This document shows, one piece after another, positions 1 to 26,169 of a stretch of DNA of 32,252 nucleotides (position 1 is the first letter of the stretch; every line of letters starts with the position of its first letter). The notes under the pieces are model-generated. The model saw only the letters and a program-made list of their open reading frames with translations. It made no database searches and was not told where the DNA came from. The DNA lies in sequence record DRR723986_3087; one strand, given 5' to 3'. The position numbers and the translations under genes are program-made.

Positions 1-597
1 CACATGGGTGACGCCCATATCGTGATCATCCACCACAACCGCCAGCATATAAACGGGCGTGCCATCAGAGCGCAGCAAAACCATATCATCCAGCTGGTCA
101 TTGCGGATGGTAACATCGCCCTGCACCTGGTCTTTGATCACGCTCACCCCGTCGCGCGGGGCCTTGATGCGCACCACATAGGAGGCATCTGGGTGGCTGG
201 CGGGGTCGGCATCGCGCCAGGGGCTTTGGAACAGGGTTGAACGTTTCTCGGCCTGTGCGGCCTCGCGAAAGGCTTGAATTTCCTCTTGGGTGGCAAAGCA
301 TTTATAGGCCTTGCCCGCGGCCAGCAGGCTGTGGGCCACTTCGGCGTGGCGCGCGGCGCGGTCGAATTGGCTGATGATCTCGCCGTCATGATCCAGCCCC
401 AGCCACGCCATGCCCGATAAAATGGCCTGCGTCGCCTCGGGGGTTGATCGGGCGCGATCCGTATCCTCGATACGCAACAAAAACTTGCCACCACGCCCCC
501 GCGCATAAAGCCAGTTAAACAGCGCCGTCCGGGCGCCGCCGATGTGCAAATAGCCAGTGGGCGAGGGGGCAAAGCGGGTGACGACAGGGCCTGACAT
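1..597 (-). CDS. gltX: Glutamate--tRNA ligase, N-terminal part (runs off the window start)
   Basis: My translation from ATG at 597 gives [29 protein letters not shown] (class I aaRS HIGH motif); the frame is open to position 1. Not in the ORF track because its stop lies outside the window. Confidence 0.97.
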
Positions 598-605
598 GCG
601 GTTTA

Positions 606-621
606 GTTAACCTTTCGGTAA
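606..621. promoter_or_regulatory. Putative CtrA box upstream of comEC
   Basis: GTTAA-CCTTTCG-GTAA; the reverse complement TTAC-N7-TTAAC has 1 mismatch to the CtrA consensus TTAA-N7-TTAAC. It lies in the divergent gltX-comEC gap. Confidence 0.6.
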
Positions 622-677
622 GAATTCAGTTGCTAGCTTTTACGCCTGTCTACCGGGGTGCCAAGCAGGGGGCAAGC

Positions 678-2153
678 GTGCGTGTTTTCCAAACACTTGA
701 AACCGCCTTTGCCCTGCAGCGGGGGGCGTTGTTTCCCTGGGCGCCGGTGATGTTAGCCTGTGGGATAGGGCTGTATTTTTCCTTAACGATCGAGCTGACT
801 TTCCCCATTTATACGGCGCTTTTTGTCATTTTTGTAATCGCCAGCGCCGCGGCGCTGCGGGGCGGGCTGTTGGCGCAGGTTTGGGCGGGGGCTGTGGCGC
901 TGGTTGTGCTGGGGGTGCTTTTGGCGGGTTTGCGCGCCCATGCGGTGGCGGGGCCGGTGCTGGGCTTTCGCTATTATGGGCCGGTCGAGGGGCGCATTAT
1001 CGCGATAGATCGATCAGGCAGCGATGCGCTGCGGCTGCTGCTCGATCAGGTGGTGTTGGCCGATACCGCCCCCGACAGGGTGCCGCGCCGCGTGCGGGTG
1101 TCGCTGCATGGGGCGCAGGGTGTTGTGGTGCTGGCGCCCGGGCAACGGGTGATGATGAGCGCGCATCTTTCGGCGCCATCTGGCCCGGTCGAGCCGGGCG
1201 GCTTTGATTTTCGCCGCCATGCCTGGTTTTTGGGAATTGGTGCGGTGGGTTATACCCGCACGCCGGTGGTGCTGGCGGTGGCAGATCGCCAGGGCGTTTG
1301 GCTGGGGCAGCTGCGCCACCACCTGTCGCAAAGGGTGCAGGCGCGCATTTCTGGCGATGCGGGCGGGTTTGCGGCAGCGATTCTCACAGGCGATCGTTCG
1401 GCGGTGGCGCAACCCCGGCTCGAGGCGCTGCGCGACAGCAATTTGGCGCATCTGCTGGCGATTTCAGGGCTGCATATGGGGCTGTTGGCGGGGTTTGTTT
1501 TTGCCCTTATTCGCGGTGGGCTGGCGCTGTGCCCGCCGCTGGCGTTGCGCCTGCCGGCGCGCAAAATTGCAGCTGTGGTGGCCATGGCGGCAGGGGCGTT
1601 TTACCTGGCGCTTTCGGGGGGCAATGTGGCAACCGAACGCGCCTTTAGCATGGTTGCGGTGATGCTCTGCGCGGTGTTGCTGGAACGCCGCGCGTTGTCG
1701 TTGCGATCAGTGGCGGTTGCGGCGCTGGTGGTGCTGGCCTTGCGCCCCGAGGCACTGGCAGGCCCCGGTTTTCAAATGAGTTTTGCCGCCACCACGGCCC
1801 TGGTGGCGGTGTTTGGCTGGCTGACCAAGCAGCGCCCAAATACCGGCTGGTTGGCCCAAAAATGGCTGCGGCTGGCGCTTGGCGTGGTGGTATCCTCGGG
1901 CATTGCGGGGCTGGCCACGGCACCTTTGGCGGCGGCGCATTTCAACCAGATTGCCCATTACGGATTGCTGGCCAATTTGGCCAGCGTGCCCCTGATGGGG
2001 GCGGTGATAATGCCTGCGGCGGTTATTGGCATTTGCCTGATGCCCTTTGGGCTTGACGGGGTGCCGCTGTGGGTGATGGGCCAAGGTTTGGCATGGGTGT
2101 TGTTTGTGGCCGATACCGTGGCGGCCTGGCCCTCCTCATATGTTATTTATTAA
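678..2153 (+). pseudogene. comEC: ComEC/Rec2 DNA-uptake channel, 5' part, interrupted by the integrated element
   Basis: Motifs PGGFDFRR and HLLAISGLH, GFQMSF and many TM helices. Likely start is GTG 678 (ORF track starts at 630). Host sequence ends at the att core (2132); the tail SSYVIY* is element-derived. Confidence 0.93.
2118..2140. repeat. Left attachment junction (core CTGGCCC at 2126-2132)
   Basis: GTGGCG-GC-CTGGCCC-TC-CTCATA; the core is identical to 11120-11126. Confidence 0.88.
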
Positions 2154-2214
2154 CATATTGATTTTAAGTTATAAAAATAGACGAAAATAATGTCGTATAC
2201 CAAACTGTATACCA
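2151..2214. promoter_or_regulatory. Left att arm: IHF consensus site and tandem integrase arm-type repeats
   Basis: Reverse complement of 2151-2163 is AATCAATATGTTA, a perfect WATCAANNNNTTR. GTATACCA occurs at 2195-2202 and 2207-2214, and again at the other end (10994-11001). Confidence 0.65.
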
Positions 2215-2225
2215 CATCATTGGTT

Positions 2226-2585
2226 TTAGCATTCAGGCACCTCCCCGAAGTCATAAACCTCCACAGACCGCTCCCAGATAGCTTTGTGAGTAACTCTGTC
2301 AGCGTAGAAGCGGCCTTCGCCGGTCTGCACTTCAAAAAACCGGTGTTCGCCTTTTTTACGAGCGACAACCAATGTCACATTCGCCATTGGAATCAAGCAT
2401 GGGTTGCCACCTTGATCAAGCACCTCAAGCCAGCGTTTGCCGATTGTGGCCAGCTGATCCACGCCACGGTCCGTCAGTGTTGCTCGGACCCGCTTTCCGG
2501 CCTGCGCCTCGTATTCAATTTCGACATCATCACACCAGATAATCCGGTGATATGGAATTTTGCCCGATTCAGTTTCGATAAGCAT
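2226..2585 (-). CDS. Hypothetical protein (~119 aa, beta-rich), last gene of the element
   Basis: Within ORF 2226-2717. Preferred start ATG 2585 (MLIETESG) has GAGG just upstream and is co-oriented with the other element genes. Confidence 0.6.
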   Translation of the reverse strand: MLIETESGKIPYHRIIWCDDVEIEYEAQAGKRVRATLTDRGVDQLATIGKRWLEVLDQGGNPCLIPMANVTLVVARKKGEHRFFEVQTGEGRFYADRVTHKAIWERSVEVYDFGEVPEC

Positions 2586-2614
2586 AGATGGCCTCATGTT
2601 GCATAGAGAGAGAT

Positions 2615-2852
2615 TGGCCTGACCGAGACGGCGTGAGGTGCCGAGGACAGTTCGGTCAGGCCAGTTTGCATCCGCGCAGCCCTGCAAACCGCCGATGCTC
2701 AGGGGATCTAGAAGCACTCACCCCTGCAAAGTGATCCAAGTTATCTTGCGTGGCGTATGCATTGCAGGATCGCCACTTAATAGGCGCGCGCTTGGCCGAC
2801 GGTTAGCTGAGCAAGATGGGTGGCGCATCGCCCACACAACGCGCCACCCATC
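2615..2852 (-). ncRNA. Candidate structured RNA/ssDNA element between the capsid gene and the last ORF
   Basis: Series of perfect inverted repeats: 2615-2626/2652-2663 (12 bp), 2664-2670/2683-2689 (7 bp), 2700-2705/2721-2726, 2750-2755/2771-2776, 2815-2826/2841-2852 (12 bp), plus long-range 2696-2702/2807-2813. Strand is inferred from the flanking genes. Confidence 0.4.
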
Positions 2853-2857
2853 ATCTT

Positions 2858-4489
2858 TTACGCCGTCGTCAACGAAATCACGTTAAATGCCTGAGGGTGA
2901 CGAACATTCACGTCAGCCAGCATGTGCGATGTGATTGCGATTTTTGCCGACGTTGCGTTGGTATACGGATCGACAATCAGATCCACACCACCGAACATAG
3001 CGACCAGCAGATGCTGCCAAACGCCCAGATAGACGTTGCTTTCCGTTGCCTTGGTGGTCTGGATGACGCGCCGCCCGAGGATCGTATTTGTTGCGGGATC
3101 CACAACGAACCGCCCGGAGCCACTGTCGATCGCTGTCTGAGCGATGCGAGCATAATCCGCTGGGTGCATCACAAACACAGCGCCATCAGTGCTGATATTG
3201 TCAGCCTCGATAGCAGATAGAGCCGTCAGAGCCTCGGCATATGTGATCGTATTACCGGCGGCAGTCAGCGTATTCACGCCTGAGGTATTTGCCACCCCCG
3301 TCGGCTGCCCGTTAGCGCCTGTGCCTTCAAGGCCGGCGGTATCGATCGCCTGCATCAGCGTGGTGCCAATGCTCCGCCGAACAATCTCATCAATTGACGG
3401 CTGCGATTGAAGCAACGCTTCTCGAGTGAAGGTTTGAGACGCGCTCACACGCTTCATCGACATGCTGATGCTATCGACATCAATCGAGCTGTCCGAAACT
3501 GCTGCGCCCTCGGCGAGCCACGCTGCGGTAGCGTCTGCTGCCAGTTTTGGGACAGTGAAGTTGCGGTCAAGACCGGTCATAACAGTTGCACCCGCTGCCA
3601 TCACAGAGGACGCGGAACGCAGCTTGTCGATAAACATGCCTGCATTCAGATCGGTTGTGATTGCGCCTGCTGCATTGCCAGCTGACGTGATCGTTGCACG
3701 CTGACCAAGGATAGCAGATGCAGGCACGACCAGCCCGCGCGCTTGCCCGGGGTAGGAGCGAGCTGCCTCTTGAGACATTTCGCGCTCATAGCCCGCATTC
3801 GACCAGTCACCGGTCACATGCGCGCGCAGCACAGCGCCAATGCTGTAATCACGCGTCCCACGGCTGTGAACCGCAGGAGCCGCAAGATCCAAAGGCGAAG
3901 TTGCAACATCATCTAGCAGCTGATTGCGAAACTGCTCCAGCGACGTGCCAGCTTCGATAGCTGCGGCAGCAAGATCAGTTTTACCATGTTGACGGCCCAT
4001 GGCCGCGATTTGTTTCGCTTCATTTTCCATTGAAGAAGCCTTTCGAATTGCCCGCAAAGAGAACGCGGCGGCTTCCCGGCCTGTGCGTTTTTGCAGATAA
4101 GCGATGCTCAGAGCAGCCCCGCCAGAGGCAAAAGCCGCCATGGCTTTGCGCCCATTTTCCGACCTAGAAAATTTGACGGTTGCTCGGCCATCCTGATCGA
4201 TACTGACAGCGCCCACCTGTTTGCGGGTGTTGCCATTGAGCAGAACGGGAAACGGCCTATCCTGACCGCTCTTTAGCGCGTCATCGCAGCGCGCTTGAAG
4301 TTGATAAACCTCATGTCCCCGCGCAGTCCGCACAGCCGTATAGCGGCCGTCTACAGGCGTCTCTGAGGGGGCAAGACATGAAATCATTGTGGTGCTTTCA
4401 GCTGGCTCAAAATCACGTTTGGCCAGCTCTTTGATCGCAGCAATACGGGCAGCATCCAGCTGCATCGGTGCTGTTGGTGTTAGCTGCAT
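2858..4489 (-). CDS. HK97-fold major capsid protein with N-terminal degenerate prohead-protease-like domain (543 aa)
   Basis: C-terminal capsid signatures AAWLAEG, LEGTGANGQPTGV, FVMHP, ILGRRV, LIVDPYT and VRHPQAF. The N-terminus has SETPV, PVLLN, QVGAV, ATVKFSRS and LSIAY, resembling fused prohead proteases. Confidence 0.9.
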   Translation of the reverse strand: MQLTPTAPMQLDAARIAAIKELAKRDFEPAESTTMISCLAPSETPVDGRYTAVRTARGHEVYQLQARCDDALKSGQDRPFPVLLNGNTRKQVGAVSIDQDGRATVKFSRSENGRKAMAAFASGGAALSIAYLQKRTGREAAAFSLRAIRKASSMENEAKQIAAMGRQHGKTDLAAAAIEAGTSLEQFRNQLLDDVATSPLDLAAPAVHSRGTRDYSIGAVLRAHVTGDWSNAGYEREMSQEAARSYPGQARGLVVPASAILGQRATITSAGNAAGAITTDLNAGMFIDKLRSASSVMAAGATVMTGLDRNFTVPKLAADATAAWLAEGAAVSDSSIDVDSISMSMKRVSASQTFTREALLQSQPSIDEIVRRSIGTTLMQAIDTAGLEGTGANGQPTGVANTSGVNTLTAAGNTITYAEALTALSAIEADNISTDGAVFVMHPADYARIAQTAIDSGSGRFVVDPATNTILGRRVIQTTKATESNVYLGVWQHLLVAMFGGVDLIVDPYTNATSAKIAITSHMLADVNVRHPQAFNVISLTTA

Positions 4490-4860
4490 TTGTCAGCCTC
4501 CTCTAATTTTTTGAAATCGACCCATAGGGCGCTTGGCGACTGCATGCGGAGAGCCAGCGTTAGCCGGTGCAAATACAACGGAACGTAACGCTCGCCTTCA
4601 GACAGCAGCATTACACCGGCGATATGATCGCGAAGCCGCCACGCCGACAGAATAAGCGTAGACGCGCGTGAGAGGGTGCCTGCCGTTACAAGCGGCCCAC
4701 GGCCCCAAGCATCCATGCATGCAGCTAGCAAGGCATCACAGCGGCTTGCAGGCCACTCAGGAAACGCGCCCGCAACAATCGCCTGTGCGTTCTTCAGGCC
4801 TGTGCTGCGAATCCGCTGGGTATCTTCGCGGGTTAGCCATTTTGCTGGGGCGTTCATCAT
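4480..4860 (-). CDS. Hypothetical protein (126 aa)
   Basis: Overlaps the upstream stop (4857-4860) and the capsid start (4480-4489), consistent with translational coupling. Confidence 0.7.
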   Translation of the reverse strand: MMNAPAKWLTREDTQRIRSTGLKNAQAIVAGAFPEWPASRCDALLAACMDAWGRGPLVTAGTLSRASTLILSAWRLRDHIAGVMLLSEGERYVPLYLHRLTLALRMQSPSALWVDFKKLEEADKCS

Positions 4861-5288
4861 AAGATCCCCCGAACATGTGCATCGACGTAATCGCCGATTT
4901 CGATAAAGATGAAGTCAGCTTCCTCAAGCGCGGCAACGGCTGCCTCACGGGAGGTAAAAATGCCGGTGTAGTCTTCCAACTCACTCCAACTGGGAACACC
5001 GACGATCACCGTCTCGATCTCCCGCGCCTGATGCTGGTCGATGGCTTCAGCCAGCGCTTTTTCATCAATCAACTTAAGCAACTCAGCCTGCTTGCTTGTC
5101 GGCACTCCAAACATGCGCAAGCGGCCCATCAGCAGGCTCTTAGCGAGATCAACGGCTCCGTATCGGCGCTGATTTCCAACCCTCACGCCGTCGCTGAAGG
5201 GGAGGTCATAGCGGTAGCATTCATTTACCCAGTTTGAGCGGCTTCGGAAGCCAGCGCCGCGGGCTAAATCGGTAGTGGTAAATAGCAT
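4857..5288 (-). CDS. MerR-like winged-HTH protein (143 aa)
   Basis: N-terminus FTTTDLARGAG...GNQRRYGAVDL...LRMFGVP fits a MerR-type wHTH; GAGG RBS upstream; first gene of the capsid operon. Confidence 0.7.
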   Translation of the reverse strand: MLFTTTDLARGAGFRSRSNWVNECYRYDLPFSDGVRVGNQRRYGAVDLAKSLLMGRLRMFGVPTSKQAELLKLIDEKALAEAIDQHQAREIETVIVGVPSWSELEDYTGIFTSREAAVAALEEADFIFIEIGDYVDAHVRGIL

Positions 5289-5414
5289 TTGGCAACCTCA
5301 AGTTTGCGATGCAGTATATTGATTTAATTATACTATAATGAGGCGTCTGGGTGAATCTCTCCATTGGCTGCAAAGGTGAGATTTGGAGTTTTCGGGGCAG
5401 CCGCTGAGACTGGC

Positions 5415-5458
5415 TCGGGGTAAGAACGACCCGCGTTGCAGGGATTTATTGAGGACCC
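5415..5458 (-). other. Putative lambda-type cos packaging site (cosQ-like plus cosN-like)
   Basis: Minus strand reads GGGTCCT-N16-CGCGGGTCGTTCTTACCCCGA. GGGTCCT is identical to lambda cosQ and is followed at a similar spacing by a GC-rich partial dyad (GGGT-N7-ACCC). Confidence 0.45.
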
Positions 5459-5459
5459 A

Positions 5460-6302
5460 TCAGCGCTTATTCGTTAAGCCTGCTTTGGCTATTTCAACCG
5501 CATTTCGCAGTTCAGTGATCCGAAGATAATTTAACTGATCGGCAGTTCCCAAGCGCACTCTTCTTTTGATTAAATCGTTGAGGCGGGGAATATCGATACC
5601 CAATTCCAAATTATCTCTCTCGCGTTCGAGATACTCAACTACGAAGCCTTGGGGGCGACAGAAAAAAAACTCATGCCCATAACTTGCCACAAGTGAGTCA
5701 AAATTGGCGCCAAAAACTTCCTTCGGAACTTGGTAATAAGCGATACGCTTGGGAAAAGGTGGTAGGCAAACCAAGCTGTCACGATAACCAAAATCAAAAT
5801 AGACCGTTGCTCCACAATCGATCCAATTCTTTGGAAACACTGCAACCCGTGGGGTGGCAAAATGCCATTGGTAATAGAAATTATGCTGCCGAAAATCATC
5901 TTCAAATCTAGATTTATCCCGTTTCAGCCTATTTCCATCAACGATCCAAAGCATATCGCCGTAGAAGTCTTCTCGCGCCTTCTGTTCTTCGCGCGAAATG
6001 GGGCTGTGTTGGAACTCGATGACTAGTCCGCTGGGCGTCTTAACGTCAGCAATGTGCTTTTCACCGTTCGGAGCGAAATGGACAATTTCTTGCCATTCTT
6101 TTGGGAAGTTATCCTTCCAGTTTCGATGCCACTCGGTCTCAGGCTCCCACCAGCGATCGCAGTCGGTTTTACTTTTATGCGCCCAGTGCCAAACTCGCTG
6201 TTTGCCGCACTTGGCCACGACATCAGATCCGCAACACTGGCAAAGAGCCACGCCCCCGGGCGTCGGTTCAACCCTCTTATCCTCAAAGAGCGCGTATCGC
6301 AT
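5460..6302 (-). CDS. CoiA-like Zn-finger plus PD-(D/E)XK nuclease (280 aa)
   Basis: CQCCG...AKCG...WHWAH...DCD...EPETEWH and HIADV...VIEFQHS motifs typical of the CoiA-like family; 3' half is AT-rich. Confidence 0.85.
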   Translation of the reverse strand: MRYALFEDKRVEPTPGGVALCQCCGSDVVAKCGKQRVWHWAHKSKTDCDRWWEPETEWHRNWKDNFPKEWQEIVHFAPNGEKHIADVKTPSGLVIEFQHSPISREEQKAREDFYGDMLWIVDGNRLKRDKSRFEDDFRQHNFYYQWHFATPRVAVFPKNWIDCGATVYFDFGYRDSLVCLPPFPKRIAYYQVPKEVFGANFDSLVASYGHEFFFCRPQGFVVEYLERERDNLELGIDIPRLNDLIKRRVRLGTADQLNYLRITELRNAVEIAKAGLTNKR

Positions 6303-6429
6303 AGCGGTTCCCTAGAGTGAGACGATTGCCAGCAAGCTGAATTTGTAAGAAGTCTATCTTTTTGCTCTGAGCCTATCAGGAAGAGAGAGCAGAGCAAACT
6401 CAATAGAGAAATCAGGCTTTGGTCGCGCC

Positions 6430-6596
6430 AGTGGAAAAGGGGGAACGTTTCCACGCAACTTGCCGAACAGTGACCAAAGATGCCGATGCAATGCGGAAAC
6501 AATTAGACATAGACCTAAAAAGCATCTTTTAATCAGTCACTTAATACATTCTACATGTTGCGTGGGAAAGTAATCCCCCTTTTCCACTCATCCACT
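6430..6596. repeat. Long inverted repeat flanking an AT-rich spacer; putative replication origin
   Basis: AGTGGAAAAGGGGGAacgTTTCCACGCAAC (6430-6459) is inverted relative to GTTGCGTGGGAAAgtaaTCCCCCTTTTCCACT (6557-6588). An extra TCCACT lies at 6591-6596. Directly downstream of the primase-helicase gene. Confidence 0.7.
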
Positions 6597-6623
6597 ATGT
6601 CTCTAAAGACAGGGCTTTTTTTA

Positions 6624-9035
6624 TCAGTTTTCACCGAAATCAAACCCACTCTGATCGGTGGCTTTCTGGAAGGGTATGAGGCCCTTGAACTCACCACGGC
6701 TAGCCTTTTTTCCGCGCGCCCATCCGGCGCTTTGTAAAATCGCACCTACTCTCCGAGAGAGAGCTAGGGTTTGCCGCTCACGTTCAATCCCGAGATGGTC
6801 AAGTAACTCGCGGGCAAAGACATCTGCGCCTTTAGCTGCCGCTTTTTCGGCATAAGTCAAAACGTCACCAGCCCACGGATCGTCCTCACTGCGGTCCATT
6901 ACAAGCTCTGCAGCTTTACTCTCGAGCGCACTGTCCAGCCACCATCTCTCGCCATTGCGGTAGAGAGTCACCGCCTCGGCCCAGAGTTGATCACGGTCTC
7001 GCTTTAAATCCTCGCCACTGATGCGCCCCACGACAACCGGCCAAAAACGGCGCCCACCGGTTGCATCAGTCATCCAGTCTTGGCGGTTTGTTGTGCCGAC
7101 GAACACGCACCGCCTCGGCTCTACAACTTCCGCTCGGCCATACGGCGGGCGGTAGCGCTCAGTTGTGCGAGACAGAAAAGCCTTCGTGCTTTCAATATCG
7201 GTTTTCCGCATTGCCGCTAATTCAGGCAATTCAATTATCCACTTTCCGCGCAGAGCCGCTGCTGCATCCTTGCTGGACAAGTCACCGAGACTGTCGTGGA
7301 ACCAACTATCGCCAGTCAGTATTCGAAGGGCGGTTGACTTGCCAGCACCCTGCGGGCCTTCCAGAACAGGGACGTGATCGGCTTTGCATCCGGGGTCGAA
7401 GGCCCTTGCCACTGCAGAGATGGCCCATGCCTTTCCAACCGTTCTGTTGAATTCAGTATCTTCAGCGCTGAAATAGGTCACAAACAGTCGATCAAGGCGT
7501 GACACTCCATCCCACACGAGATCTTCAAGATAATGGCGAACTGGCGAGATAATGTTGTCTTGGGCTGCTGCTAATATTGCATCAGTGACGACAGCCTTAG
7601 TTGCCCGCGGAAAGCCATTACGATTAAACCATCTTATCGTGTGGGAAATGTCGACATCCGAGACTTCGCGGGGCTTAAATGTAGACTTTGGAGTCTTTGT
7701 GCCGGGTATAGGCCTCATCAGCATAATGATGCCAGCCAACTCGTCGTAGGCAAATACACAATGCCATTCATCTTCGTTTGTCAGCGTAGCGTATGCGGAT
7801 TGATAGCACCAAAGCGGGCGTCCACGGCCATCGCGCATAATCTCTTCTTCTTCGCGTTCGCCTTGAAGGGTCGCTAACTCTGCGCGGCAAAGACGGTATG
7901 ACGTCTTGCAGCCTTCATCATAAACAAACGGCCGCCCCTCTCCGTCGAATGCAATAAACGCAGCCTCAGATGAACTCTCGCGAAAAGGAGCCTCACAGCG
8001 GAGTTTCGAACCCATTTTCATTTCTTTGACCCACTCAGAAAGAGGCTTTTCTACCCCCTTGACCTCGATCGGCGTGTCCAGCTTCAGCGATTTGTGGTCT
8101 TGGGCCGAATAACTGCCGTTGGGATCGAAAACTAACTCCGTTTTGGCTTTTTTATTCATCAGCGCCACATCATCCGAACGCGGAGGCTTACTGTAAGGGC
8201 CGTTGTCGAAGGGACCAGCGCCTTCATTCACAATTGTGATGTCTGCGTCCGCAACATGGTAACCGGGCGCGTTTGATACATCGGGCTTTGCGCAAAAGAC
8301 TAAACGTCCCTGATCCCAAACAGCTAAATCAAAAACCGTCCGATGCTCATGCCCCACTACCTCGCCAGTCGAGCGCGATTTTCTGGGGAAGCTAAACGAG
8401 AGGTTTTTTAACTCCATATGAACGCGCACATGCGCACGAAGGAATGGCAGGAACTCTGGGTTGGAAATGCGCAGCCATGCATGCGTGGCATTTCCGGGCT
8501 GTTCCCCATCCTTCACCACCCGTGCGGACGATGCACGCAATTCTATGCGCTCAGCTTTTGAAATCCCGGGCAGGATTGCCTCCATCAGCTCTAAACGCTG
8601 GCTGATCGTCATTGCCGCCCAATGCTCGGGGATGCCCGGCGGGTTATCGGCGTCTAGCAGCAACCACGAAACAGGATCGATGCCATGCTTAAGGCGAGCG
8701 CCGACAAGTTTTCCGTCATGCTTCACCAAACCTGTGGGCGCCTCTTCGCACTCCACACCAAGCCGTTGGATCAGTTTGGCTTTAGAGAGATAGCAAAACT
8801 TTTCGTTTATTTGGGCGCCCCTCCAGACGCCGGGGCAGATCGCTATGTCACTTCTGTTTGTGACATAATTCAGATGCTTCACCATTTCCTGAGCGGTGTT
8901 AGCAGATAGCGTTATCGCTTCCCCTTCCGACACATTGGCAATGGGTGCCTTTTCAAGAGACCCATTTTGTAGCGTGTAAGTCTTACAAACGTAGGACGGA
9001 TTAGTAGTCCTGATCAGTGTGATTGCGTTCAGCAT
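6624..9035 (-). CDS. Primase-helicase fusion: AEP-like N-terminus plus VapE/VirE P-loop domain (~803 aa)
   Basis: Walker A GPQGAGKST, WIIELPEL, YRPPYGR, FVGTTN, DATGGRRFWP and RDQLWAEA (VapE family). N-terminal LLDAD and THAW resemble AEP motifs. ATG 9035 is preceded by GGAG. Confidence 0.9.
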   Translation of the reverse strand: MLNAITLIRTTNPSYVCKTYTLQNGSLEKAPIANVSEGEAITLSANTAQEMVKHLNYVTNRSDIAICPGVWRGAQINEKFCYLSKAKLIQRLGVECEEAPTGLVKHDGKLVGARLKHGIDPVSWLLLDADNPPGIPEHWAAMTISQRLELMEAILPGISKAERIELRASSARVVKDGEQPGNATHAWLRISNPEFLPFLRAHVRVHMELKNLSFSFPRKSRSTGEVVGHEHRTVFDLAVWDQGRLVFCAKPDVSNAPGYHVADADITIVNEGAGPFDNGPYSKPPRSDDVALMNKKAKTELVFDPNGSYSAQDHKSLKLDTPIEVKGVEKPLSEWVKEMKMGSKLRCEAPFRESSSEAAFIAFDGEGRPFVYDEGCKTSYRLCRAELATLQGEREEEEIMRDGRGRPLWCYQSAYATLTNEDEWHCVFAYDELAGIIMLMRPIPGTKTPKSTFKPREVSDVDISHTIRWFNRNGFPRATKAVVTDAILAAAQDNIISPVRHYLEDLVWDGVSRLDRLFVTYFSAEDTEFNRTVGKAWAISAVARAFDPGCKADHVPVLEGPQGAGKSTALRILTGDSWFHDSLGDLSSKDAAAALRGKWIIELPELAAMRKTDIESTKAFLSRTTERYRPPYGRAEVVEPRRCVFVGTTNRQDWMTDATGGRRFWPVVVGRISGEDLKRDRDQLWAEAVTLYRNGERWWLDSALESKAAELVMDRSEDDPWAGDVLTYAEKAAAKGADVFARELLDHLGIERERQTLALSRRVGAILQSAGWARGKKASRGEFKGLIPFQKATDQSGFDFGEN

Positions 9036-9132
9036 CAACTCAACTCCAAAGTTGAGCCAACAGCGTTCACGTGCTATGAAATACGGGCATAGAGAGAGTC
9101 CCGTCGGCACGCTTAGCAGCTGTCGGCGGGTT

Positions 9133-9327
9133 TTATTTTGCGGTGGTGGCAGTGAGACGCTCTACGAGGGCCTGAACATCAGCCTCACGAAAGGCTACGC
9201 AACGTTCGGATAGCTTGATCGGCTGTGGGAACTGCGGGTCGCGGTTCATCATCCGATACCATGTTGAGCGGGTGTAACCGGTTTGTTTTAGGGCTTCCGG
9301 CAGGCGAATGAGACGATTTGTTGACAT
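9133..9327 (-). CDS. alpA: AlpA-family regulator/excisionase (64 aa)
   Basis: RLIRLPEALKQTGYTRSTWYR...FPQPIKLSERCVAF is a canonical AlpA pattern; AAGGAGG RBS. Confidence 0.93.
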   Translation of the reverse strand: MSTNRLIRLPEALKQTGYTRSTWYRMMNRDPQFPQPIKLSERCVAFREADVQALVERLTATTAK

Positions 9328-9390
9328 GCTGGCCTCCTTGGGCGTTTTGGCATGTCCTCGTCATTAGGCAGGTTTTGGTCTTCGCGAGCC

Positions 9391-9415
9391 TGACAGAATT
9401 TCAGAAATTTTGTCA
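9391..9415. promoter_or_regulatory. Operator-like palindrome upstream of alpA
   Basis: TGACAGAATTT-CAG-AAATTTTGTCA, 11-bp arms with 1 mismatch. Confidence 0.5.
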
Positions 9416-9418
9416 CAA

Positions 9419-9793
9419 TTACTTTGCCTCACCGGCCCACCGCCGATGCATCCTTTCAATCGACTTCCAATCGTAACGGTCTTCGCCTTGATGGGAGAAG
9501 TAAATCTGCCGGATGATCTTATATGCATCCTCGTGGGTTTTGCCGTTTTCAACCGTATAATATCGGAAAAGCCGGTCGATCTCGCGCCACTTTACAAACT
9601 CGTCAGCTTTACTGTCAGGCCGCTTGTTTCGGAGATCGGACGCAATAGCTTTGCCGAGGTCGGGGAGGCCACCGGGAGGCGAAAGCTCAACAAGCTTCGC
9701 TAGAGTCTCATTATCCTTGGTCCGTATCCAGCGATCGTAGAGAAGATCGAACTCACTAGTGAAAAATAGATTGTCAGTTTTTCCCCGTGACAT
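9419..9793 (-). CDS. Hypothetical protein, possible C-terminal HTH (124 aa)
   Basis: Overlaps the integrase 3' end and sits between int and alpA; helical C-terminus GKTHEDAYKIIRQIY...WKSIERMHRRW. Confidence 0.65.
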   Translation of the reverse strand: MSRGKTDNLFFTSEFDLLYDRWIRTKDNETLAKLVELSPPGGLPDLGKAIASDLRNKRPDSKADEFVKWREIDRLFRYYTVENGKTHEDAYKIIRQIYFSHQGEDRYDWKSIERMHRRWAGEAK

Positions 9794-11012
9794 ACCGCGC
9801 CCACCTTTCTAGCACCTCGCGACGCTCTTCGAGCAAATCGCTACGTTGATATGCTGCATCAAGCGATTTTGGTTGATGCGCCTTAATGAAGTCTGTCACA
9901 TCCTTACGCACCCCGTTCTCTGCCATCCAAGATCCTAGAGTGGCTCTGAAGCCGTGAACTGTGACGTTTGGATCGAAACTTTTTAAAGCAAGGAACATTG
10001 CGTTCTGAGAAAGAGGCTTGTCGTGCTTCCTGCCAAGGACGTAGCGTTGATGGCCTGTCAGTGGCTGAATCGCTCGAATCAGTGCGATGACCAGCTCCGG
10101 GAGGGGTTGGCGATGGGCCTTTCGCATTTTCATGCCTGCCGCTGGTGTGGTCCAGATCCCACGCTCTAAGTCTAAATGCGCCCATTCCATATGTCTTATC
10201 TCTCCCGTTCTCTTACAGAGCAGTAAAGCCAGAGTTAGTCCAAGTTTAGTGTGTGGACCCATCCGGGGGCGTTCTTGAAGCCAAGTCCAAAATTCGGGTG
10301 CGCGTTCAGGCTCAAGGGCGCCAAAATGCTCTTCGACGTGATGATGCTTGGGCATAGAGCGAACTGGTGGGCAGGCATTAAATTCGCAGAACTCGAGGTC
10401 AACCGCATAATCCAAGACGCGTTCGATATTGCCGCGCACTTTCTTTCCTGTAGGAGGCTTACTGATCCAAAGCGACCTTATCGCTTCAACGATTTCCCTC
10501 CGCTTGATCTCATTAACTGGCCGCGATCCGAGAACAGGGAAAACGTGGTCGTGTAGTTGCTGAAAGACCTGTCGTTTGTATGGTCCGTCTGAAAGACCAT
10601 CCTTTAAGTGTTTTTCATACCACTCGGTTGCTATCGTTTCGAAGGTTGGCGTCTTACCTTGGCTGGAAATACGTTCGCCCGTTACAAGGCGGGTCATTTC
10701 CAATGGATCGAGTGATAGAGCCACAGCATTCCTGATGGCCTGTGCGCCATGTCCAGCGCTTACCAAAGTCTTGATTGCAGCGGCCGCTTGCCTTGCAGCA
10801 TCAGCCTTCACGTCCGGCCACGGCCCGATGGTGATATTGGTTCTTTTGTCCCCAATAACCACGCGACAGATCCAAGAGACGCGGCCACTTTTGCGTGCGT
10901 TTGCGTAGAGGTTAGGTGCGCCTTCTGGCACCCATGTGTCCTTCTTAGATGCTGCAAGAGCTTCCAGTTCTTTAAATGTCAGGCGCATGTTTTGTATACC
11001 AATTGTAGCCAT
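9774..11012 (-). CDS. int: P4-like tyrosine integrase
   Basis: Arm-binding N-terminal domain (NLY...SGRVSW...ITIGPWP) and intact catalytic set R(KRTGE)-K(MKMR)-HGFR-H(KAH)-Y(AAY). The true start may be ATG 10988 (MRLTFKEL). Confidence 0.95.
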   Translation of the reverse strand: MATIGIQNMRLTFKELEALAASKKDTWVPEGAPNLYANARKSGRVSWICRVVIGDKRTNITIGPWPDVKADAARQAAAAIKTLVSAGHGAQAIRNAVALSLDPLEMTRLVTGERISSQGKTPTFETIATEWYEKHLKDGLSDGPYKRQVFQQLHDHVFPVLGSRPVNEIKRREIVEAIRSLWISKPPTGKKVRGNIERVLDYAVDLEFCEFNACPPVRSMPKHHHVEEHFGALEPERAPEFWTWLQERPRMGPHTKLGLTLALLLCKRTGEIRHMEWAHLDLERGIWTTPAAGMKMRKAHRQPLPELVIALIRAIQPLTGHQRYVLGRKHDKPLSQNAMFLALKSFDPNVTVHGFRATLGSWMAENGVRKDVTDFIKAHQPKSLDAAYQRSDLLEERREVLERWARYVTGKN

Positions 11013-11110
11013 ACATCATGAAACACGATTGGACACGTTGGGATTTTCTGCAACTAAAAAATCAATAAATAATGGCTTTTTGAGACATTTTAGACGTAAT
11101 GATACAAACA

Positions 11111-11135
11111 TGTGGAGTTCTGGCCCGGCGCCACA
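11111..11135. repeat. Right attachment junction (core CTGGCCC at 11120-11126)
   Basis: TGTGGAG-TT-CTGGCCC-GG-CGCCACA: 7-bp overlap flanked by near-perfect inverted core-type sites. Confidence 0.88.
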
Positions 11136-11696
11136 AGCGGCGTGCCCACGCCGCCTGCGGTCGTGTTGCCGCTAATGGCGCTGGGGGCGCTTGGGGTGGT
11201 TTTGTGGCAGGGGCGGTGGGGCCTGTTGGGGTTGGTGCCGGTGGCCCTGGCCTTTGCCTTATGGGCAGGCGTGCAGCGGCCAGTGGCCCTGGTGGCCGAC
11301 AGCGGGCGCTTGGTGGGGCTGATGGGCCCCGAGGGGCGCGCCCTGTCTGCCGCGCGGGGGCAGGGGTTTGTGGCGCGTGTTTGGCTGGAAAATGATGGCG
11401 ATATTGCCACCAGCCAAGCGGCGGCTGCTGCGCGCTGGCCGGCGGTGCCGGTTCTGGGGCAGGGGCGGCTGATGGTTCTGCGCGGTGCAAAAGCCGCGCA
11501 GGCTGCCACCTGCCAGCCGGGCGATTGGGTGATAAGCGATGCCACCTTGCCCCCGGGATTGCCCTGCCAAACCATCGATAAGCGCCGCTTGCAAGACACC
11601 GGGGCAATCGCGCTTTATGCCACGCCAGATGGCGGGCTGCGCATGCGCAGCGTGGCCCAGATGGGCGGGCTGCGCCTGTGGCATGGCGGGCAATAG
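11121..11696 (+). pseudogene. comEC: ComEC 3' part, separated from the 5' part by the element
   Basis: WPGATSGVPTPPAVVLPLMALGAL...RPVALVADSGRLVG...FVARVWLENDG...GAIAL...RLW resembles rhodobacteral ComEC C-termini and is in the same frame as the 5' part across the att core. Confidence 0.88.
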
Positions 11697-11769
11697 GGGG
11701 GGTAGGCTTGCAGGCGGCAGCGCGGGCGGCCGTGCCGCTGGGGCACAGACCGGCGCGCAGCCGCAAAGA

Positions 11770-12465
11770 TTAGTAGGTGCGGATCAACCCCACCAACCGG
11801 CCCTGCACGCGCACCTTATGGCCGGGCAAAACGCGGGTTTCATAGGCCGGGTTTGCCGCCTCTAGCGCCACGCTATCGCCGCGTTTGAAAAACCGCTTTA
11901 ACGTGGCTTCCTGATCTTCCACCAGCGCCACAACGATATCGCCGTTATTGGCGGTGTTGGTTTCGCGGATCACCACGATATCGCCATCGTTGATGCCCGC
12001 CTCGATCATCGAATCGCCCTTAACCTCTAGCGCGTAATGCTCGCCGCGGCCCGCCACCATGCTGCCCGGCACCGCAATGTGATGCGAGATTTCGGCAATC
12101 GCCTCGATGGGCACACCGGCGGCAATGCGCCCCATAACCGGCAATTCGCGTGCATGCAGCGTTTCGATCGCTTGCGCGGCGGCTGGTCTTTCGCTGGGGC
12201 GTTCCCCATCGATCACGCGCAAGGCGGGCTGGGGGCTGGGGGTGGTTAAGGCATCGGGCAGGCGCACCACCTCGATGGCGCGGGCGCGGTGGGCCAGACG
12301 GCGGATAAAGCCGCGCTCTTCCAGCGCTGTAATCAGGCGGTGAATGCCCGATTTCGAGCGCAGATCCAGCGCCTCTTTCATTTCGTCAAAGCTGGGCGGC
12401 ACGCCATCGCGCTGCACCCGATTGTGAATAAAATTCAGTAAGTCGCGTTGTTTTTTCGTCAACAT
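11770..12465 (-). CDS. lexA: SOS repressor LexA (231 aa)
   Basis: MLTKKQ...PPSFDEM...RARAIEV; GRIAAG cleavage site; GDSM Ser and ATLKR Lys; GGAGG RBS before ATG 12465. Confidence 0.98.
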
Positions 12466-12497
12466 GGGCGCGGCCTCCGGCAAATGCGTATTGCTTT

Positions 12498-12512
12498 GTT
12501 CTACGCATGTTC
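12498..12512. promoter_or_regulatory. Alphaproteobacterial LexA box
   Basis: GTTC-TACGCAT-GTTC matches GTTC-N7-GTTC directly upstream of lexA. Confidence 0.85.
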
Positions 12513-12526: not shown

Positions 12527-13708
12527 CTATTCGCTTTCGATTGGCATATATTCTACCATTTCGCCCACAGCGCGGGCCGGGTCGCCGACGGGGCGGATCA
12601 CCAATGCGTTGGCGTCGGATAACACGCGCAAAAGCGCGCTGTCTTGGCGCGCAAAGGCGGTGATGCCCTCGGGGGTAAGACGGGCGCGCATGTAATGGGT
12701 GCGCGCGCCATTGGCGCCCAGCGGCGCCAGCAGTGCTGCGCGGCGCGTTGGGCTGTGGGCGGCAGGCAGCCCCGCCATTTTGCGCAGCATGGGCAGCAAA
12801 AACACATAGCCGCATACCATGGCCGATACCGGGTTTCCCGGCAGGCCCAGCACCACGCTTTGCCCCAACCGCCCTGCCATCAGCGGTTTGCCCGGGCGCA
12901 TGGCAACCTTGTAAAACGATTGCTGCACGCCCAGGCTGGCGCCTGCCTTGGCCACCAAATCGTGATCGCCCACCGAGGCGCCGCCGATTGTCACGATCAC
13001 ATCTGCCCCCTCGGCCAGCGAAAAGGCCAGATGCAGCGCCTCCATATTATCGCGGGCGATGGGCAAAATGCGGGTTTGCGCGCCATAGCTTTGCAGCATT
13101 GCGGCCAGGCCAAAGGTGTTTGAGGCAATGATCTGGTTGGGCCCCGGGGTCTCGCCCGGCACCACCAGCTCGTCGCCGGTGCTGATCAGTGCCACCACGG
13201 GGCGCCGGGCCACGGGCACCTGGGCAATATTCATTGCCGCCAGCAAGGCCACATCCATCGGGCTTAGGCGCCGGGGGGCGGGCAGGCTGTCGCCCAGCTG
13301 AAAATCGCAGCCAGCGGGGCGGATGTTTGTGGCGCCATCTGGCGTGCCTGTGATGGTCATATGCGCGCCATCGCGCTGGCAATCTTCTTGCAGCACCACC
13401 ATAGTGGCGCCCTCGGGCACGGGCGCGCCGGTAAAGATGCGCACCGCTTGGCCCGGCCCCACAGTGCCGCCAAAGGCATGGCCTGCGGCCGCCTCGCCGA
13501 TCACCTCAAAACGGGCATTGGGCCGCACGGCAGATGCATCCAGCGCATAGCCATCCATCGCTGATGCGGCAAAGGGCGGCTGGTTGCGCCGCGCATGGCA
13601 GGGCTGCGCCAGAATGCGCCCGCCCGCCTGTGCCAAAGGCACCTGTTCAACGCCCAGATCGGGGGCCAGATCGAACAGGTTTTGCAATGCCGCGTCGACA
13701 GAAATCAT
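12527..13708 (-). CDS. moeA: Molybdopterin molybdotransferase
   Basis: [36 protein letters not shown] and GLPGNPVS motifs. Confidence 0.97.
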
Positions 13709-14181
13709 TTTGCCTCGAACCGCCCCGATTTGCCGCCATCTTTCAGAAGCACACGGATACCGCCAATTTCCATTTCCTTATCCACCGCCTTGGCCATGTC
13801 GTAGACTGTCAATGCGGCGGTGGAAACGGCTGTCAGCGCCTCCATTTCCACGCCGGTTTGGCCTGTGGTTTTTACCGTGGCCTCGATGCGCACGCCGGGC
13901 AATGTGGCATCCAGCGTCAATTCGACCGCCACTTTCGTCACCGGCAGCGGGTGGCACAGCGGGATCAGATCTGGGGTTTTCTTGGCGCCCATAATGCCCG
14001 CCAGCCGCGCCACGGCCAGCACATCGCCTTTTTTGGCCCGGCCTTCGGCGATGGTTTGGTAGGTGGTAGGCGCCATGCGCACATGCCCCTCGGCCACGGC
14101 GATACGTGCGGTGACGGCCTTGTCTGAGACATCCACCATATGGGCATCGCCCTTGCCATCAAAATGCGTCAAGCCCGCCAT
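13705..14181 (-). CDS. moaC: Cyclic pyranopterin monophosphate synthase
   Basis: LTHF...MVDVSDK, KKGDVL, LIPLCHP and TGVEMEALT motifs. Confidence 0.98.
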
Positions 14182-14990
14182 TACGCTGCCCCCGCCACGG
14201 GATTGGCCAGCAAATGCTGGGTGGCGCGGGCCACATCGGCCTGGCGCATCAGGCTTTCGCCAATCAGGAAACTGCGCGCGCCATGCTGGGCCATATCAGC
14301 CAAATCCTGTGGCGTGTTCAGCCCCGATTCAGAGATCAGCAAACGCCCCTGGGGCACCATTTTCGACAACATGCGCGTGGTGTCTAAGGTGGTTTCAAAG
14401 GTTTTCAAATTGCGGTTATTCACCCCGATCAGCGGTGATTTCAGCGCCAGCGCCCGTTCCATTTCTGGCGCGTCATGCACCTCAATCAGCGCATCCATGC
14501 CCCAGGCAGTGGCGGCCTCTTCCAGCTCTTGCGCCTGGGCATCGCTGACCGAGGCCATGATGATCAAAACGCAATCCGCCCCCAGCGCCCGCGCTTCGGC
14601 CACCTGATAGGTGTCATACATGAAATCCTTGCGCAGCGCGGGCAGCTCGCAGGCGGCGCGGGCGGCGCGCAGATAGTCTTTGGCGCCCTGAAAACTGGGG
14701 GTGTCGGTCAGCACCGACAGGCAGGTGGCCCCCCCCGCCGCATAGGCCTGGGCCAAGGCGGGCGGGTCAAAATCGGGGCGGATCAAGCCCTTGGATGGGC
14801 TGGCTTTTTTGATTTCCGCAATCAACCCATAGCCTTTGGCCGAGGCGCGGGCCAGGGCCTGCCCAAAGGGGCGCACGGGCGGGGCTGCGCGCGCGGCCTC
14901 TTCTACGGCCGAAAGCGGAACGCTGGCGCGATCGGCGGCCACCTCTTGCAGTTTATAGGCTTTGATCTTGTCTAAAATCGTATCTGTCAT
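14181..14990 (-). CDS. trpC: Indole-3-glycerol phosphate synthase (269 aa)
   Basis: MTDTILDKI start; [30 protein letters not shown] and SESG motifs. Confidence 0.97.
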
Positions 14991-15673
14991 GGCGTCGTCC
15001 AGTTTATGGGCGTGTCCCCATTGGCAATAAGCCAGTCGTTCACGCGGGAAAAGGGGCGGGCGCCGAAAAAACCGCGCCGCGCCGACAGGGGCGAGGGATG
15101 GGCGCTGGTTAAAATCAGCGCCTGTGGGTGGGTGATCTGCCCGGCAAAGGCCTGCGCGTGCCGCCCCCATAGCAGATAGGCGCGGGCGCGCGTGTTGAGG
15201 CGCGCCAAAACTTCGGTGGTCAGCTGCGCCCAGCCCAATTTGGCATGCCCCCCCGCCAGCCCGGCAGGCACGCTGAGCGCGGTGTTTAACAGCAGCACGC
15301 CCTGATGGGCCCAAAACCGCAGATCGGCATGTGAAGGTGATGCGCCAAGATCGACCTGCAACTCTTTGAAAATATTTGACAAAGATCTGGGTAGGGGGGT
15401 GGTTTTGGGGGCTGCTGAAAAGGCCAGCCCATGGGCATGGCCCGGGGTTGGATACGGGTCTTGGCCCAAAATCACCACCCGCACTTTGGCGGGTGGGCAC
15501 AGCGTAAGGGCTGCAAATAGATCCGCAGGTGGGGGCAACACCTGGCGCGTTTCTTGGGCCAAGTCCTGCGCGATGCGCGGCCATTGCGTGGCAAAAAAGC
15601 GCAAATCAGCCCAGGCATCGGGGGCGGCCAGCTGGGCAAACCCTGCATTGGCCGGATGCGCCCCCATGCTCAC
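14987..15673 (-). CDS. ung: Uracil-DNA glycosylase, family 1
   Basis: [22 protein letters not shown] and HPSPLS motifs; ATGA overlaps with trpD and trpC. Confidence 0.95.
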
Positions 15674-25586: not shown

Positions 25587-26149
25587 GCCATATTCGCCTT
25601 TGTTTCCGCCATATCGTTCCATACGTCTTGGCGCGTCAGCAGCCCGCCTTCTAATTCAAAGCGGTCAATAAATCGGATGTCTTTAAAGGTGCTGCCATCC
25701 AGCCATTCGCCATAAAGCGTGCCCATGGAGTAAACCACGGTGGTGGGCCCGTTTTGCAGCGCCTCGAACCTGTCATAGGTTTTTTTCACAAAGGCATAGC
25801 GCGGCTTGGCCCAGGCGATCAGCTGCTGCAGCGTGCTCATGCCCGGCGCATCGGGGAAATTCATAACAAAGCCCGGTGCCAGCATGGCCTGTGCGGTTTC
25901 GATATCGCGCGCCTCCATCGCGGCCAGATAGGCGCGCACGGTTTCGCAGGGGTCGGGGCGGGCAGGGGCGCCGCTGCGGCTTTGGCCGCCGCGCATGTAA
26001 TTGGCGTTGGGCATTTCATGGATCATCACCGTCACCGCCTCGGGGGTGGCGGGGATGACCATGCAGGCAGCATCGGTCAACCCGCGGGCAAGGCGCTGTT
26101 TGTCGCTGGCGCTGTAGCCTTCCAGAAGATGGGCCTCGATGATTGGCAT
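25583..26149 (-). CDS. 4-oxalocrotonate tautomerase domain fused to a SnoaL/NTF2-like domain (188 aa)
   Basis: Starts MPIIEAHLLEG (Pro1) after GGAGG; the second half VRAYLAAME.RD...RFIDRFEL..G....QDVWND is SnoaL-like. Confidence 0.8.
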   Translation of the reverse strand: MPIIEAHLLEGYSASDKQRLARGLTDAACMVIPATPEAVTVMIHEMPNANYMRGGQSRSGAPARPDPCETVRAYLAAMEARDIETAQAMLAPGFVMNFPDAPGMSTLQQLIAWAKPRYAFVKKTYDRFEALQNGPTTVVYSMGTLYGEWLDGSTFKDIRFIDRFELEGGLLTRQDVWNDMAETKANMA

Positions 26150-26169
26150 GTGCCGTCCTCCCTGCAATA

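Follow-up and report, generated by a model that had tools for sequence, protein, structure and literature searches.

In this work we describe an island found in one stretch of bacterial DNA, the 32,252 nucleotides of sequence record DRR723986_3087 (hereafter the window). The island is of low GC content, measures 8,993 bp (positions 2133-11125, one core copy counted) and splits the competence gene comEC of its host, a Roseobacter-group alphaproteobacterium near Lutimaribacter. By analogy with the Ccm protein of the island SaPIbov5, we think it probable that this is an integrated, helper-dependent satellite of the phage-inducible chromosomal island (PICI) type, and that its paralogue of the phage major capsid protein (MCP) redirects or co-builds the capsids of a helper phage. 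Both the dependence on a helper and the idea that the MCP might build a whole shell are things that we infer. Enterobacteria, staphylococci and Vibrio have well-studied phage satellites; the Roseobacter group abounds in the sea and has many gene transfer agents (GTAs) and prophages. The island provides a compact, nine-gene system for testing these ideas.

The limits of the island can be read from its junctions. Two copies of a 7-bp att core, CTGGCCC, lie at 2126-2132 (the capsid-side junction, in comEC codons W484-P485) and at 11119-11125 (the integrase-side junction). Between them, the unique part of the island (2133-11118, minus strand) has a GC content of about 0.48-0.58, against about 0.63-0.66 in the flanks, and a half of comEC stands on either side. 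The core was identified from a reading of the junctions together with an alignment to an intact allele, an uninterrupted 674-aa ComEC (P0093) that was retrieved by a protein search with the left comEC part. That left part (630-2153, plus strand) consists of the N-terminal 485 codons followed by seven island-derived codons and a stop. It matches P0093 at 483 of 487 residues, up to W484-P485, with the alignment running to ...VAAWP; the open reading frame (ORF) here is 507 aa long and ComEC is broken inside its Pfam Competence domain, which ends at profile position 243 of 270. On the right, the C-terminal 191 codons (11112-11696, plus strand) align from W484 and are identical to P0093 residues 484-674 at all 191 positions; the 194-aa ORF that holds them has no family match in library scans. 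The W-P codons are duplicated at the island junctions relative to the intact allele, and no long flanking direct repeats were found, the att core being just 7 bp.

The island is inserted precisely, splitting comEC, and near-identical bacteria exist that do not have it. Because the insertion is precise, the gene content of the element is fixed at nine genes and nothing beyond them belongs to it; because the intact allele is 99-100% identical, the element must have moved recently. These observations support a discrete, intact and recently mobile element with one structural gene. The element is a little longer than the span of 2226-11012 given in a first-pass annotation of this DNA, its limits being those set by the two CTGGCCC copies.

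Nine ORFs, all of them open and all on the minus strand, fill the island with small gaps or none. In order they encode an integrase, orf124, AlpA, a VapE-type replication protein, a CoiA-like protein, orf143, orf126, the HK97-fold MCP and orf163. Pfam matches five of the nine (integrase, AlpA, VapE, CoiA-like protein and MCP) and none of the other four, and PHROGs and NCBIfam concur on the integrase, AlpA, helicase/primase and MCP. With these three libraries no portal, terminase, tail or lysis gene was found among the island ORFs, and the four unmatched products, of 124, 143, 126 and 163 aa, are too short for a portal or a large terminase. A Pfam scan of the plus strand and the alternative frames gave no match for any of 15 ORFs, hence no divergent repressor was found. 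The one-directional gene order first described for the island is therefore confirmed, as is the claimed absence of portal, TerL, head-completion, tail and lysis genes and of a divergent repressor. P4-like satellites have sid, psu, delta and epsilon together with int, alpA and an alpha primase; Pfam and PHROGs, which should include models for these four genes, matched none of them among the island ORFs. The PADLOC defence models gave nothing convincing (7 proteins; one weak match at E 0.005, 0 stretches), and a defence-system label was rejected since this sole match is sub-threshold.

The capsid gene of the island lies at 2858-4489 (minus strand). Its 543-aa product matches PF05065 (E 2e-32), phrog_617 (E 5e-79) and TIGR01554 (E 8e-29), and is laid out as a remnant of an S78 prohead protease that has no His (residues about 40-147), a helical scaffold (about 150-280) and an HK97 fold (about 280-543). 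Read from its sequence, the protein is a shortened descendant of a phage polyprotein of the protease-scaffold-MCP kind, in which the putative protease remnant has no catalytic His. In a large protein set we found 62 homologues, about 49 of which are full-length, with 40-99% identity and 529-568 aa. Phage and plasmid MCP relatives align only to residues of about 140-540; none of them exceeds 36% identity and none covers the N-terminal 140 residues.

Several comparisons point to the polyprotein origin. In long metagenomic forms of the protein Pfam Peptidase_S78 precedes Phage_capsid, and in Roseobacter phage CRP-811 the related MCP gene is an 816-aa fusion located behind terS-terL-portal. An hhalign comparison between the short family (A1) and seven long fusions (A2) spans 460 columns, with a probability of 100 and an E of 1.4e-87, and begins within the protease core. 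The N-terminal 150 aa alone align with the long fusions at a probability of 96.2 and an E of 2.7e-9, and at E<1e-3 the N-terminal profile matches seven of the ten long fusions, inside the protease region. For example, in P0053 the Pfam S78 domain covers residues 170-272 and the N-terminal profile matches 176-241.

All ten long forms (597-816 aa) have His in the protease His column, and none of the 48 short forms (469-568 aa, the island MCP included) does; in its place stands Gly (44), Ala (3) or Asn (1). The count is based on 59 rows, with P0062 gapped at this column and six matches of less than 430 aa left out. Ser is found in the protease Ser column of 16 of 27 short forms (A1) versus seven of seven long forms (A2), and the short-form MCP lacks the latter half of the protease. 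The short forms thus do not have the His and Ser pair of S78 catalysis (His in 0/48).

A tree of the shared region (58 rows and 385 columns, from a quick search, P0062 left out, midpoint-rooted only) places the 48 His-less short forms on one side of a branch that is supported at SH-aLRT 100 and whose stem measures 0.99 changes per site. Our reading is that protease activity was probably lost once, long ago, and that the short forms have since diversified at length under constraint, which would make them a lineage and not debris. A diversified clade in which 48 of 48 members are without His argues against a fresh deletion remnant.

The AlphaFold model of the MCP agrees with this layout, with a predicted beta-rich domain at about 40-147, a helical stretch at about 150-245 and then the HK97 fold. 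Its fold is matched best by the capsids of roseophage R4C, of D3 and of the Rhodobacter capsulatus GTA (RcGTA), by the SaPIbov5/Ccm procapsid and by HK97. The best of these is 8gta_A, the capsid of roseophage R4C, at E 2.4e-16, and the Ccm procapsid chain 7rwz_C is among them at E 3.3e-12 and 14% identity.

A genome scan with the MCP identified 11 loci, three of which hold close relatives: L001 (55%), L002 (48%) and L003 (only a C-terminal fragment). The foreign segment ends with the capsid gene in both L001 and L002; tRNA-Ser(CGA) lies about 220 bp away, and beyond the tRNA come rplU, obg and proB. L002 hosts homologues of orf143 (39%), orf126 (36%) and the MCP (48%) in the same order as the island. 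The first-pass annotation had raised the possibility that close homologues retain portal and terminase genes at this position, in which case the island would be a deletion remnant. In L002 it is the orf143 and orf126 homologues, and not portal or terminase genes, that precede the capsid gene, and the capsid gene is terminal in both loci. The island is not a deletion remnant.

The three elements also have in common, although their targets differ (tRNA-Ser versus comEC), a pair of GGTATAC-like repeats with a period of 12, at the same distance from the junction (window 2195-2213, L001 1859-1877, L002 3522-3540). In the island this is the direct repeat GGTATAC-N5-GGTATAC on the minus strand, some 60-80 nt from the junction, and its two copies are candidate arm-type integrase sites. 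This pattern has one match in the window, and none of 100 shuffles had any. A degenerate version occurs once each in L001 and L002, between the capsid gene and tRNA-Ser, and in none of ten other loci; as it was derived post hoc from the same three elements, it is supportive only. No convincing likeness emerged when comEC as a target was compared with the tRNA-Ser site of L001 and L002, and the idea was dropped.

The two genes ahead of the capsid gene appear to be tied to it. Orf143 (4857-5288, minus strand), which comes first, overlaps orf126 (4480-4860, minus strand) by 4 nt (ATGA), and the stop of orf126 overlaps the capsid start by 10 nt. A promoter-like site, TTCACC-17-TATAAT (5327-5355, minus strand), is found 39 nt upstream of orf143; with 10/12 matches it is the best of eight such sites, a number not above chance (shuffle mean 5.9). 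The gap that contains it, 5289-5459, had been proposed as a cos candidate, and besides the promoter-like site we find nothing there that marks a cos. Judging from the overlaps and the site that precedes them, orf143, orf126 and the MCP gene are a translationally coupled operon. A perfect 12-bp hairpin (2815-2852, minus strand, 100% complementary) just 3' of the capsid stop is a possible terminator of this operon; it fails the T-run rule of the terminator scan.

The family of orf126 is small and conserved: a library of 1.84 billion proteins contains 27 representatives of it at E<=1e-3, all of 41-132 aa. The orf126 model is confident (predicted local distance difference test, pLDDT, 96.0; predicted TM-score, pTM, 0.86) and consists of four helices followed by a small three-stranded sheet with helices. 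A search with this fold gave no match at E<=0.001 in PDB and BFVD. A profile search of PDB sequences with the family returned TAL-effector repeat proteins only, with 0 passing stretches, and these were judged spurious. The complex predicted for MCP residues 1-280 and orf126 scored 0.00 with family alignments unused, a result that speaks neither for nor against binding.

Orf143 has no Pfam or PHROG family, and a word-index search found three homologues. For one of these and for the MCP homologue P0012 the longest contig is given as 10,848, a shared figure that hints at linkage between the two. Searched as a family, orf143 has no PHROG match at E<=0.09, and so no small terminase was recognised in it. 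An NCBIfam match to CobN (E 0.009), which scores 13.8 bits where the cut-off is 1235, was rejected. The label of winged helix-turn-helix protein that it had been given came from inspection of the N-terminal sequence only and finds no backing in hidden Markov models. It is possible that orf143 is a DNA-binding or packaging-redirecting protein.

With these results the island can be set beside known satellites. The PICI model of SatelliteFinder, as described in PMC10085698, has five core components, among them a regulator of the AlpA, Stl or MerR type and a capsid-like gene, and elements with four of the five are of Type B. By that published description the island has four of the five, namely the integrase, the regulator (AlpA), the replicase-type gene and the capsid-like gene, with the small terminase absent; of the tail, holin, portal and head-tail connector genes whose presence excludes an element from the PICIs, it has none. 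Arguably, then, the element falls into a described type, an outcome that the first-pass annotation had weighed against its own suggestion of a poorly described family. The latter suggestion survives at the level of sequence, as a megablast of the island has no match among 50,697 records of phages and 72,556 of plasmids and the MCPs found there do not pass 36%. It does not survive as a claim that a capsid-only architecture is new, because satellites with a lone MCP gene are in print: SaPIbov5 with its Ccm (PMC5052747, PMC8569155), PmCI172 and EcCICFT073 c1499 (PMC6092414), and the PICI-like tycheposons that carry a lone MCP or terS (bioRxiv 10.1101/2020.12.28.424599). In the main texts of open-access papers and bioRxiv preprints we found no description of a Roseobacter-group satellite, nor of one whose MCP is a polyprotein with a dead protease.

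A good example for comparison is SaPIbov5, which like the island is integrative, has no portal or terminase and carries one HK97-fold capsid homologue with an altered N-terminal scaffold. Ccm is described as an MCP homologue of HK97 fold with a shortened N-terminal scaffold part, which cannot replace the helper MCP, sits in pentamers and forces small isometric capsids (PMC5052747, PMC8569155). The island MCP seems to answer to this description by analogy; the likeness is one of kind and not of sequence kinship, given 14% identity to 7rwz_C. Unlike the island MCP, Ccm traces back to an MCP with a delta domain and is without any remnant of a protease, and the Staphylococcus aureus pathogenicity islands differ further in their Stl repressor, divergent transcription and Gram-positive host.

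Among Gram-negative PICIs, PmCI172 of Pasteurella multocida and EcCICFT073 c1499/c1500 of Escherichia coli share with the island a one-directional order of int, alpA, replication gene and capsid homologue, and PmCI172 is reported to make small capsids (PMC6092414). Compared by description, the island differs from them in that no terS/rpp-like or head-decoration gene is recognised, in its bacterial class, in its protein-coding target (comEC), in the dead protease of its MCP and in its two orphan partner genes. The tycheposons of Prochlorococcus, again compared by description, are likewise marine, with a tyrosine recombinase, a primase/helicase and a lone MCP or terS (bioRxiv 10.1101/2020.12.28.424599), whereas their hosts are cyanobacteria, their targets are tRNAs and they are defined by a hallmark gene set. 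The capsid-forming PICIs described in PMC10085698 have int, alpA, a replication module and their own HK97 capsid, which in Firmicutes is merged with a prohead protease. However, they also have terL, terS, a portal, a head-tail adaptor and connector and HNH among their 9-11 core components, none of which is in the island.

Small elements of other kinds overlap with the island in part. The portal-less 'twilight-zone' HK97 genomes (5-11.6 kb) resemble the island in size (about 9 kb) and in having an integrase, an excisionase, a helicase and, for structural genes, just an MCP with scaffold, while portal, terminase and tail are absent; by the description in PMC13669383, their main group is from the human gut, with encapsulin-like MCP domains and RepA, whereas in the alphaproteobacterial island Pfam sees Phage_capsid only. 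Virion-encapsulated integrative mobile elements (VEIMEs) and PICMIs (phage-inducible chromosomal minimalist islands) are small marine integrative elements carrying an integrase together with AlpA and a primase/helicase. VEIMEs, which occur in virions as concatemers, are described as having no MCP (PMC9618062), which sets them apart from the island, and PICMIs as having no capsid-remodelling genes (PMC10803314). The Charybdis elements, described as 4.6-kb archaeal elements without hallmark genes (bioRxiv 10.1101/2025.08.03.668216), are unrelated.

If the island is a satellite of the PICI type, its cycle might run as follows. A helper phage whose head gene is of the same polyprotein type would turn the island on through AlpA. 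The island would then excise, restoring comEC, replicate from an inverted repeat beside the helicase gene and express the capsid operon. The satellite MCP would join procapsids nucleated on the helper portal, either beside the helper MCP or in its place (compare Ccm at the pentamers), and would steer assembly toward a shell that fits about 9 kb. The scaffold could be removed by the active protease on co-assembled helper subunits or by the helper protease in trans; because the protease of the island MCP is dead while its scaffold is kept, maturation should depend on the protease of the helper. The helper terminase, tails and lysis functions would complete packaging and release. Orf143 and orf126 would be conserved partners of the capsid step, and are candidates for packaging redirection or assembly control.

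These ideas can be joined into a bolder proposal, which taken as a whole we consider unlikely. In it the island would be the first member to be described from a widespread alphaproteobacterial satellite lineage, whose dead-protease MCP, with orf143 and orf126, would build a satellite-sized shell on a stolen portal. Only the helper protease would mature this shell, so that maturation would act as a dependency lock, and the reversible seat in comEC would shut the import of GTA or transforming DNA by the host for as long as the island is resident.

Some of our observations weigh against the satellite reading. The window holds no helper phage and none has been identified, and the nearest phage MCPs are just 31-36% identical to that of the island, which implies no specific helper lineage. 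We know the island only in its integrated form; its excision, replication and encapsidation we infer. No terS, cos site or pac site was recognised in it. Only two loci are informative about the layout upstream of the capsid gene, and of these L001 ends 83 nt and L002 1.7 kb upstream of it. The root of the tree is a midpoint choice and not a known one, and the nearest row with His, L005, sits on a long branch. The AlphaFold model of the MCP is of moderate confidence (pLDDT 71.6, pTM 0.50). Finally, an N-terminal domain that is conserved yet dead could serve some other function, such as interference.

That last point leads to the rival that fares best, in which the element is an anti-phage interference island. 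The protease-dead MCP would be a poison subunit or decoy aimed at phages with polyprotein MCPs, protecting the host population, and the island would spread rarely or by other means. We find this improbable. It would fit the loss of His in all 48 short forms, as a domain that is nonetheless conserved suits a dominant-negative role, and the lack of any recognised packaging gene or site; Ccm, moreover, is reported to lower helper titre 10^3-10^7-fold (PMC5052747). However, interference and piracy do not exclude each other in known satellites, and the island has kept its own integrase, AlpA and replication module, moved recently and matches no PADLOC model convincingly.

Could the island instead be a parasite of the GTA of its host, using the GTA portal, terminase, tail and lysis genes while silencing the import of GTA DNA from its seat in comEC? 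ComEC is reported to be required for the uptake of DNA delivered by RcGTA (PMC10883770), the island splits this very gene, and the RcGTA capsid chains 6tb9 and 6tsu are among the fold matches of the MCP at E of about 1e-12. Nevertheless we hold this to be very unlikely: the match is at fold level only (17-18% identity) and a PDB profile search, which returned two sequences, gave no GTA capsid; the sequence relatives of the MCP are phage polyproteins; the window is free of GTA genes; and the load of RcGTA is about 4-4.5 kb by the account in PMC13669383, less than half of the island.

We give equally little credence to an autonomous, portal-less 'mini' HK97 virus that packs its genome without portal or terminase and needs no helper. 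Small genomes with an integrase, excisionase and helicase, and with MCP and scaffold only but no portal, terminase or tail, are described in PMC13669383, which leaves open whether they are satellites or use non-canonical packaging, and the size (8.99 kb) and gene set of the island are similar. Against this, the main group of those genomes is gut-derived according to the same source, and the island has no entry or lysis function, a VapE/D5 helicase and not a rolling-circle Rep, and a capsid protein in which Pfam sees Phage_capsid only and no encapsulin domain. Its phage-type scaffold and dead protease imply maturation by the protease of another element.

Least probable of all is a decaying prophage from which portal, terminase and tail genes were lost and in which the capsid gene happened to stay, for although the MCP comes from a phage head polyprotein, part of which is lost, and complete-phage relatives stand behind terS-terL-portal, this explanation is already largely refuted by nine ORFs that are all open, by the precise insertion relative to a 99-100% identical empty allele, by the recurrence of the terminal-capsid layout at another site (tRNA-Ser) in L001 and L002, and by the 48 short forms, which are one old clade of stable length with identities down to 40%.

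What would a satellite of this kind teach us? The origin of its capsid protein can be read directly, as a polyprotein in which the protease was killed and half of it deleted, and two conserved partner proteins accompany it, one of which, orf126, has a confidently predicted fold that lacks a known match. If the MCP works as we propose, it would represent a second, independent origin of the strategy used by Ccm, and the maturation protease would be a new kind of tie between satellite and helper. By its seat in comEC the island also connects satellites with DNA uptake, or with the receipt of GTA DNA, in Alphaproteobacteria. Since comEC is needed for the uptake of RcGTA DNA (PMC10883770) and the island splits it, neither GTA DNA nor transforming DNA should be imported by a carrier before the island excises. 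Insertions of mobile elements into competence genes are known, and one case in comEC is described from Streptococcus pneumoniae (PMC12378983).

The remaining genes of the island make up its integration, regulation and replication module. The integrase (9774-11012, minus strand) is a P4-type tyrosine recombinase of 412 aa that matches phrog_1 (E 1e-45) and, in Pfam, has arm-binding, central and catalytic domains (Arm-DNA-bind_3, Phage_int_M and Phage_integrase). It is followed by orf124 (9419-9793, minus strand), located between int and alpA, which has no match in Pfam, PHROGs, NCBIfam or PADLOC. AlpA (9133-9327, minus strand) is a 64-aa protein of the AlpA family of regulators/excisionases (PF05930, E 2.2e-13; phrog_66 and phrog_2790, annotated as excisionase and transcriptional regulator). 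Upstream of alpA is a gap of 91 nt that contains a 12-nt palindrome, TGACAGAATTTC/GAAATTTTGTCA (9391-9415, 92% complementary, 1 nt between the arms). This candidate operator may be the site of a helper or host regulator that governs induction of the island.

The 828-aa replication protein (6624-9110, minus strand) had been labelled a primase, and only its C-terminal half, a VapE/D5-type helicase, is recognisable. PF05272 matches residues 528-737 (E 1e-80), PHROG helicase/primase families match residues 416-807, and the PDB sequence 7pds matches residues 483-717 (E 1e-47). Residues 1-415 match nothing, and no primase catalytic domain was found there. The suggestion of an origin in the gap that follows was a better one. 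Directly 3' of the gene we find a strong but imperfect inverted repeat of about 160 nt (6430-6588, with arms at 6430-6467 and 6549-6588) which folds at -38.4 kcal/mol, compared with -18.3 +/- 3.2 for 200 shuffles, none of which is as stable (z = -6.2). An Rfam scan of window positions 1-12500 at E<=0.1 returned nothing, so the repeat is no known RNA. Its position agrees with that of PICI origins, which are described as sitting directly 3' of the replication gene (PMC6092414), and it is our candidate replication origin. An origin made of tandem repeats or iterons was considered and rejected, the only array being one of 21 nt and 1.9 copies inside orf124, which is not origin-like.

The CoiA-like protein (5460-6302, minus strand) has 280 aa and, by Pfam, combines a Cys-rich N-terminal domain (CoiA_N, E 1.2e-7, 31.6 bits) with part of the CoiA nuclease-like domain (CoiA_nuc, E 5.2e-5, 23.9 bits). 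Both matches are above the curated cut-offs, and the latter spans only profile positions 47-93 of 158. PHROGs, NCBIfam and PADLOC gave no match, nor did PDB sequences at E<=1. An island that disrupts comEC thus itself encodes a homologue of a second competence protein. This may be coincidence, or the protein may be a packaging or replication nuclease or may interfere with recombination.

At the other end of the island, the accessory gene orf163 (2226-2717, minus strand) has no match in Pfam, PHROGs, NCBIfam or PADLOC and no tblastn match in the 11 loci, and is thus missing in both L001 and L002. If translation started at an internal ATG at 2597, the product would be about 123 aa long.

Beyond the capsid relatives described above, the locus that hosts the His-bearing row L005, from a Paenirhodobacter metagenome-assembled genome, encodes a 625-aa MCP with the protease His (9287-11164) located 2.4 kb upstream of integrase and TonB-receptor genes (13608-14468). 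Pfam finds no portal or terminase in the 7 kb upstream of this MCP, and the locus may be another small capsid-carrying element.

The flanks of the island are ordinary chromosome, with gltX, comEC, lexA, moeA, moaC, trpC/D/G and ordinary metabolic genes, and no tRNA is found in the window. The nearest named ComEC is from a Lutimaribacter metagenome-assembled genome (92% identity), followed by Roseovarius species at about 64-66%. The lexA gene (11770-12483) is on the opposite strand, about 70 nt past the C-terminal comEC fragment and about 0.65 kb from the island. Two ORFs in the flanks exceed the domains that they encode, which are IGPS at residues 204-458 of 467 (14181-15584) and GntR/UTRA at residues 202-426 of 456 (25754-27124); their listed starts are probably too far upstream.

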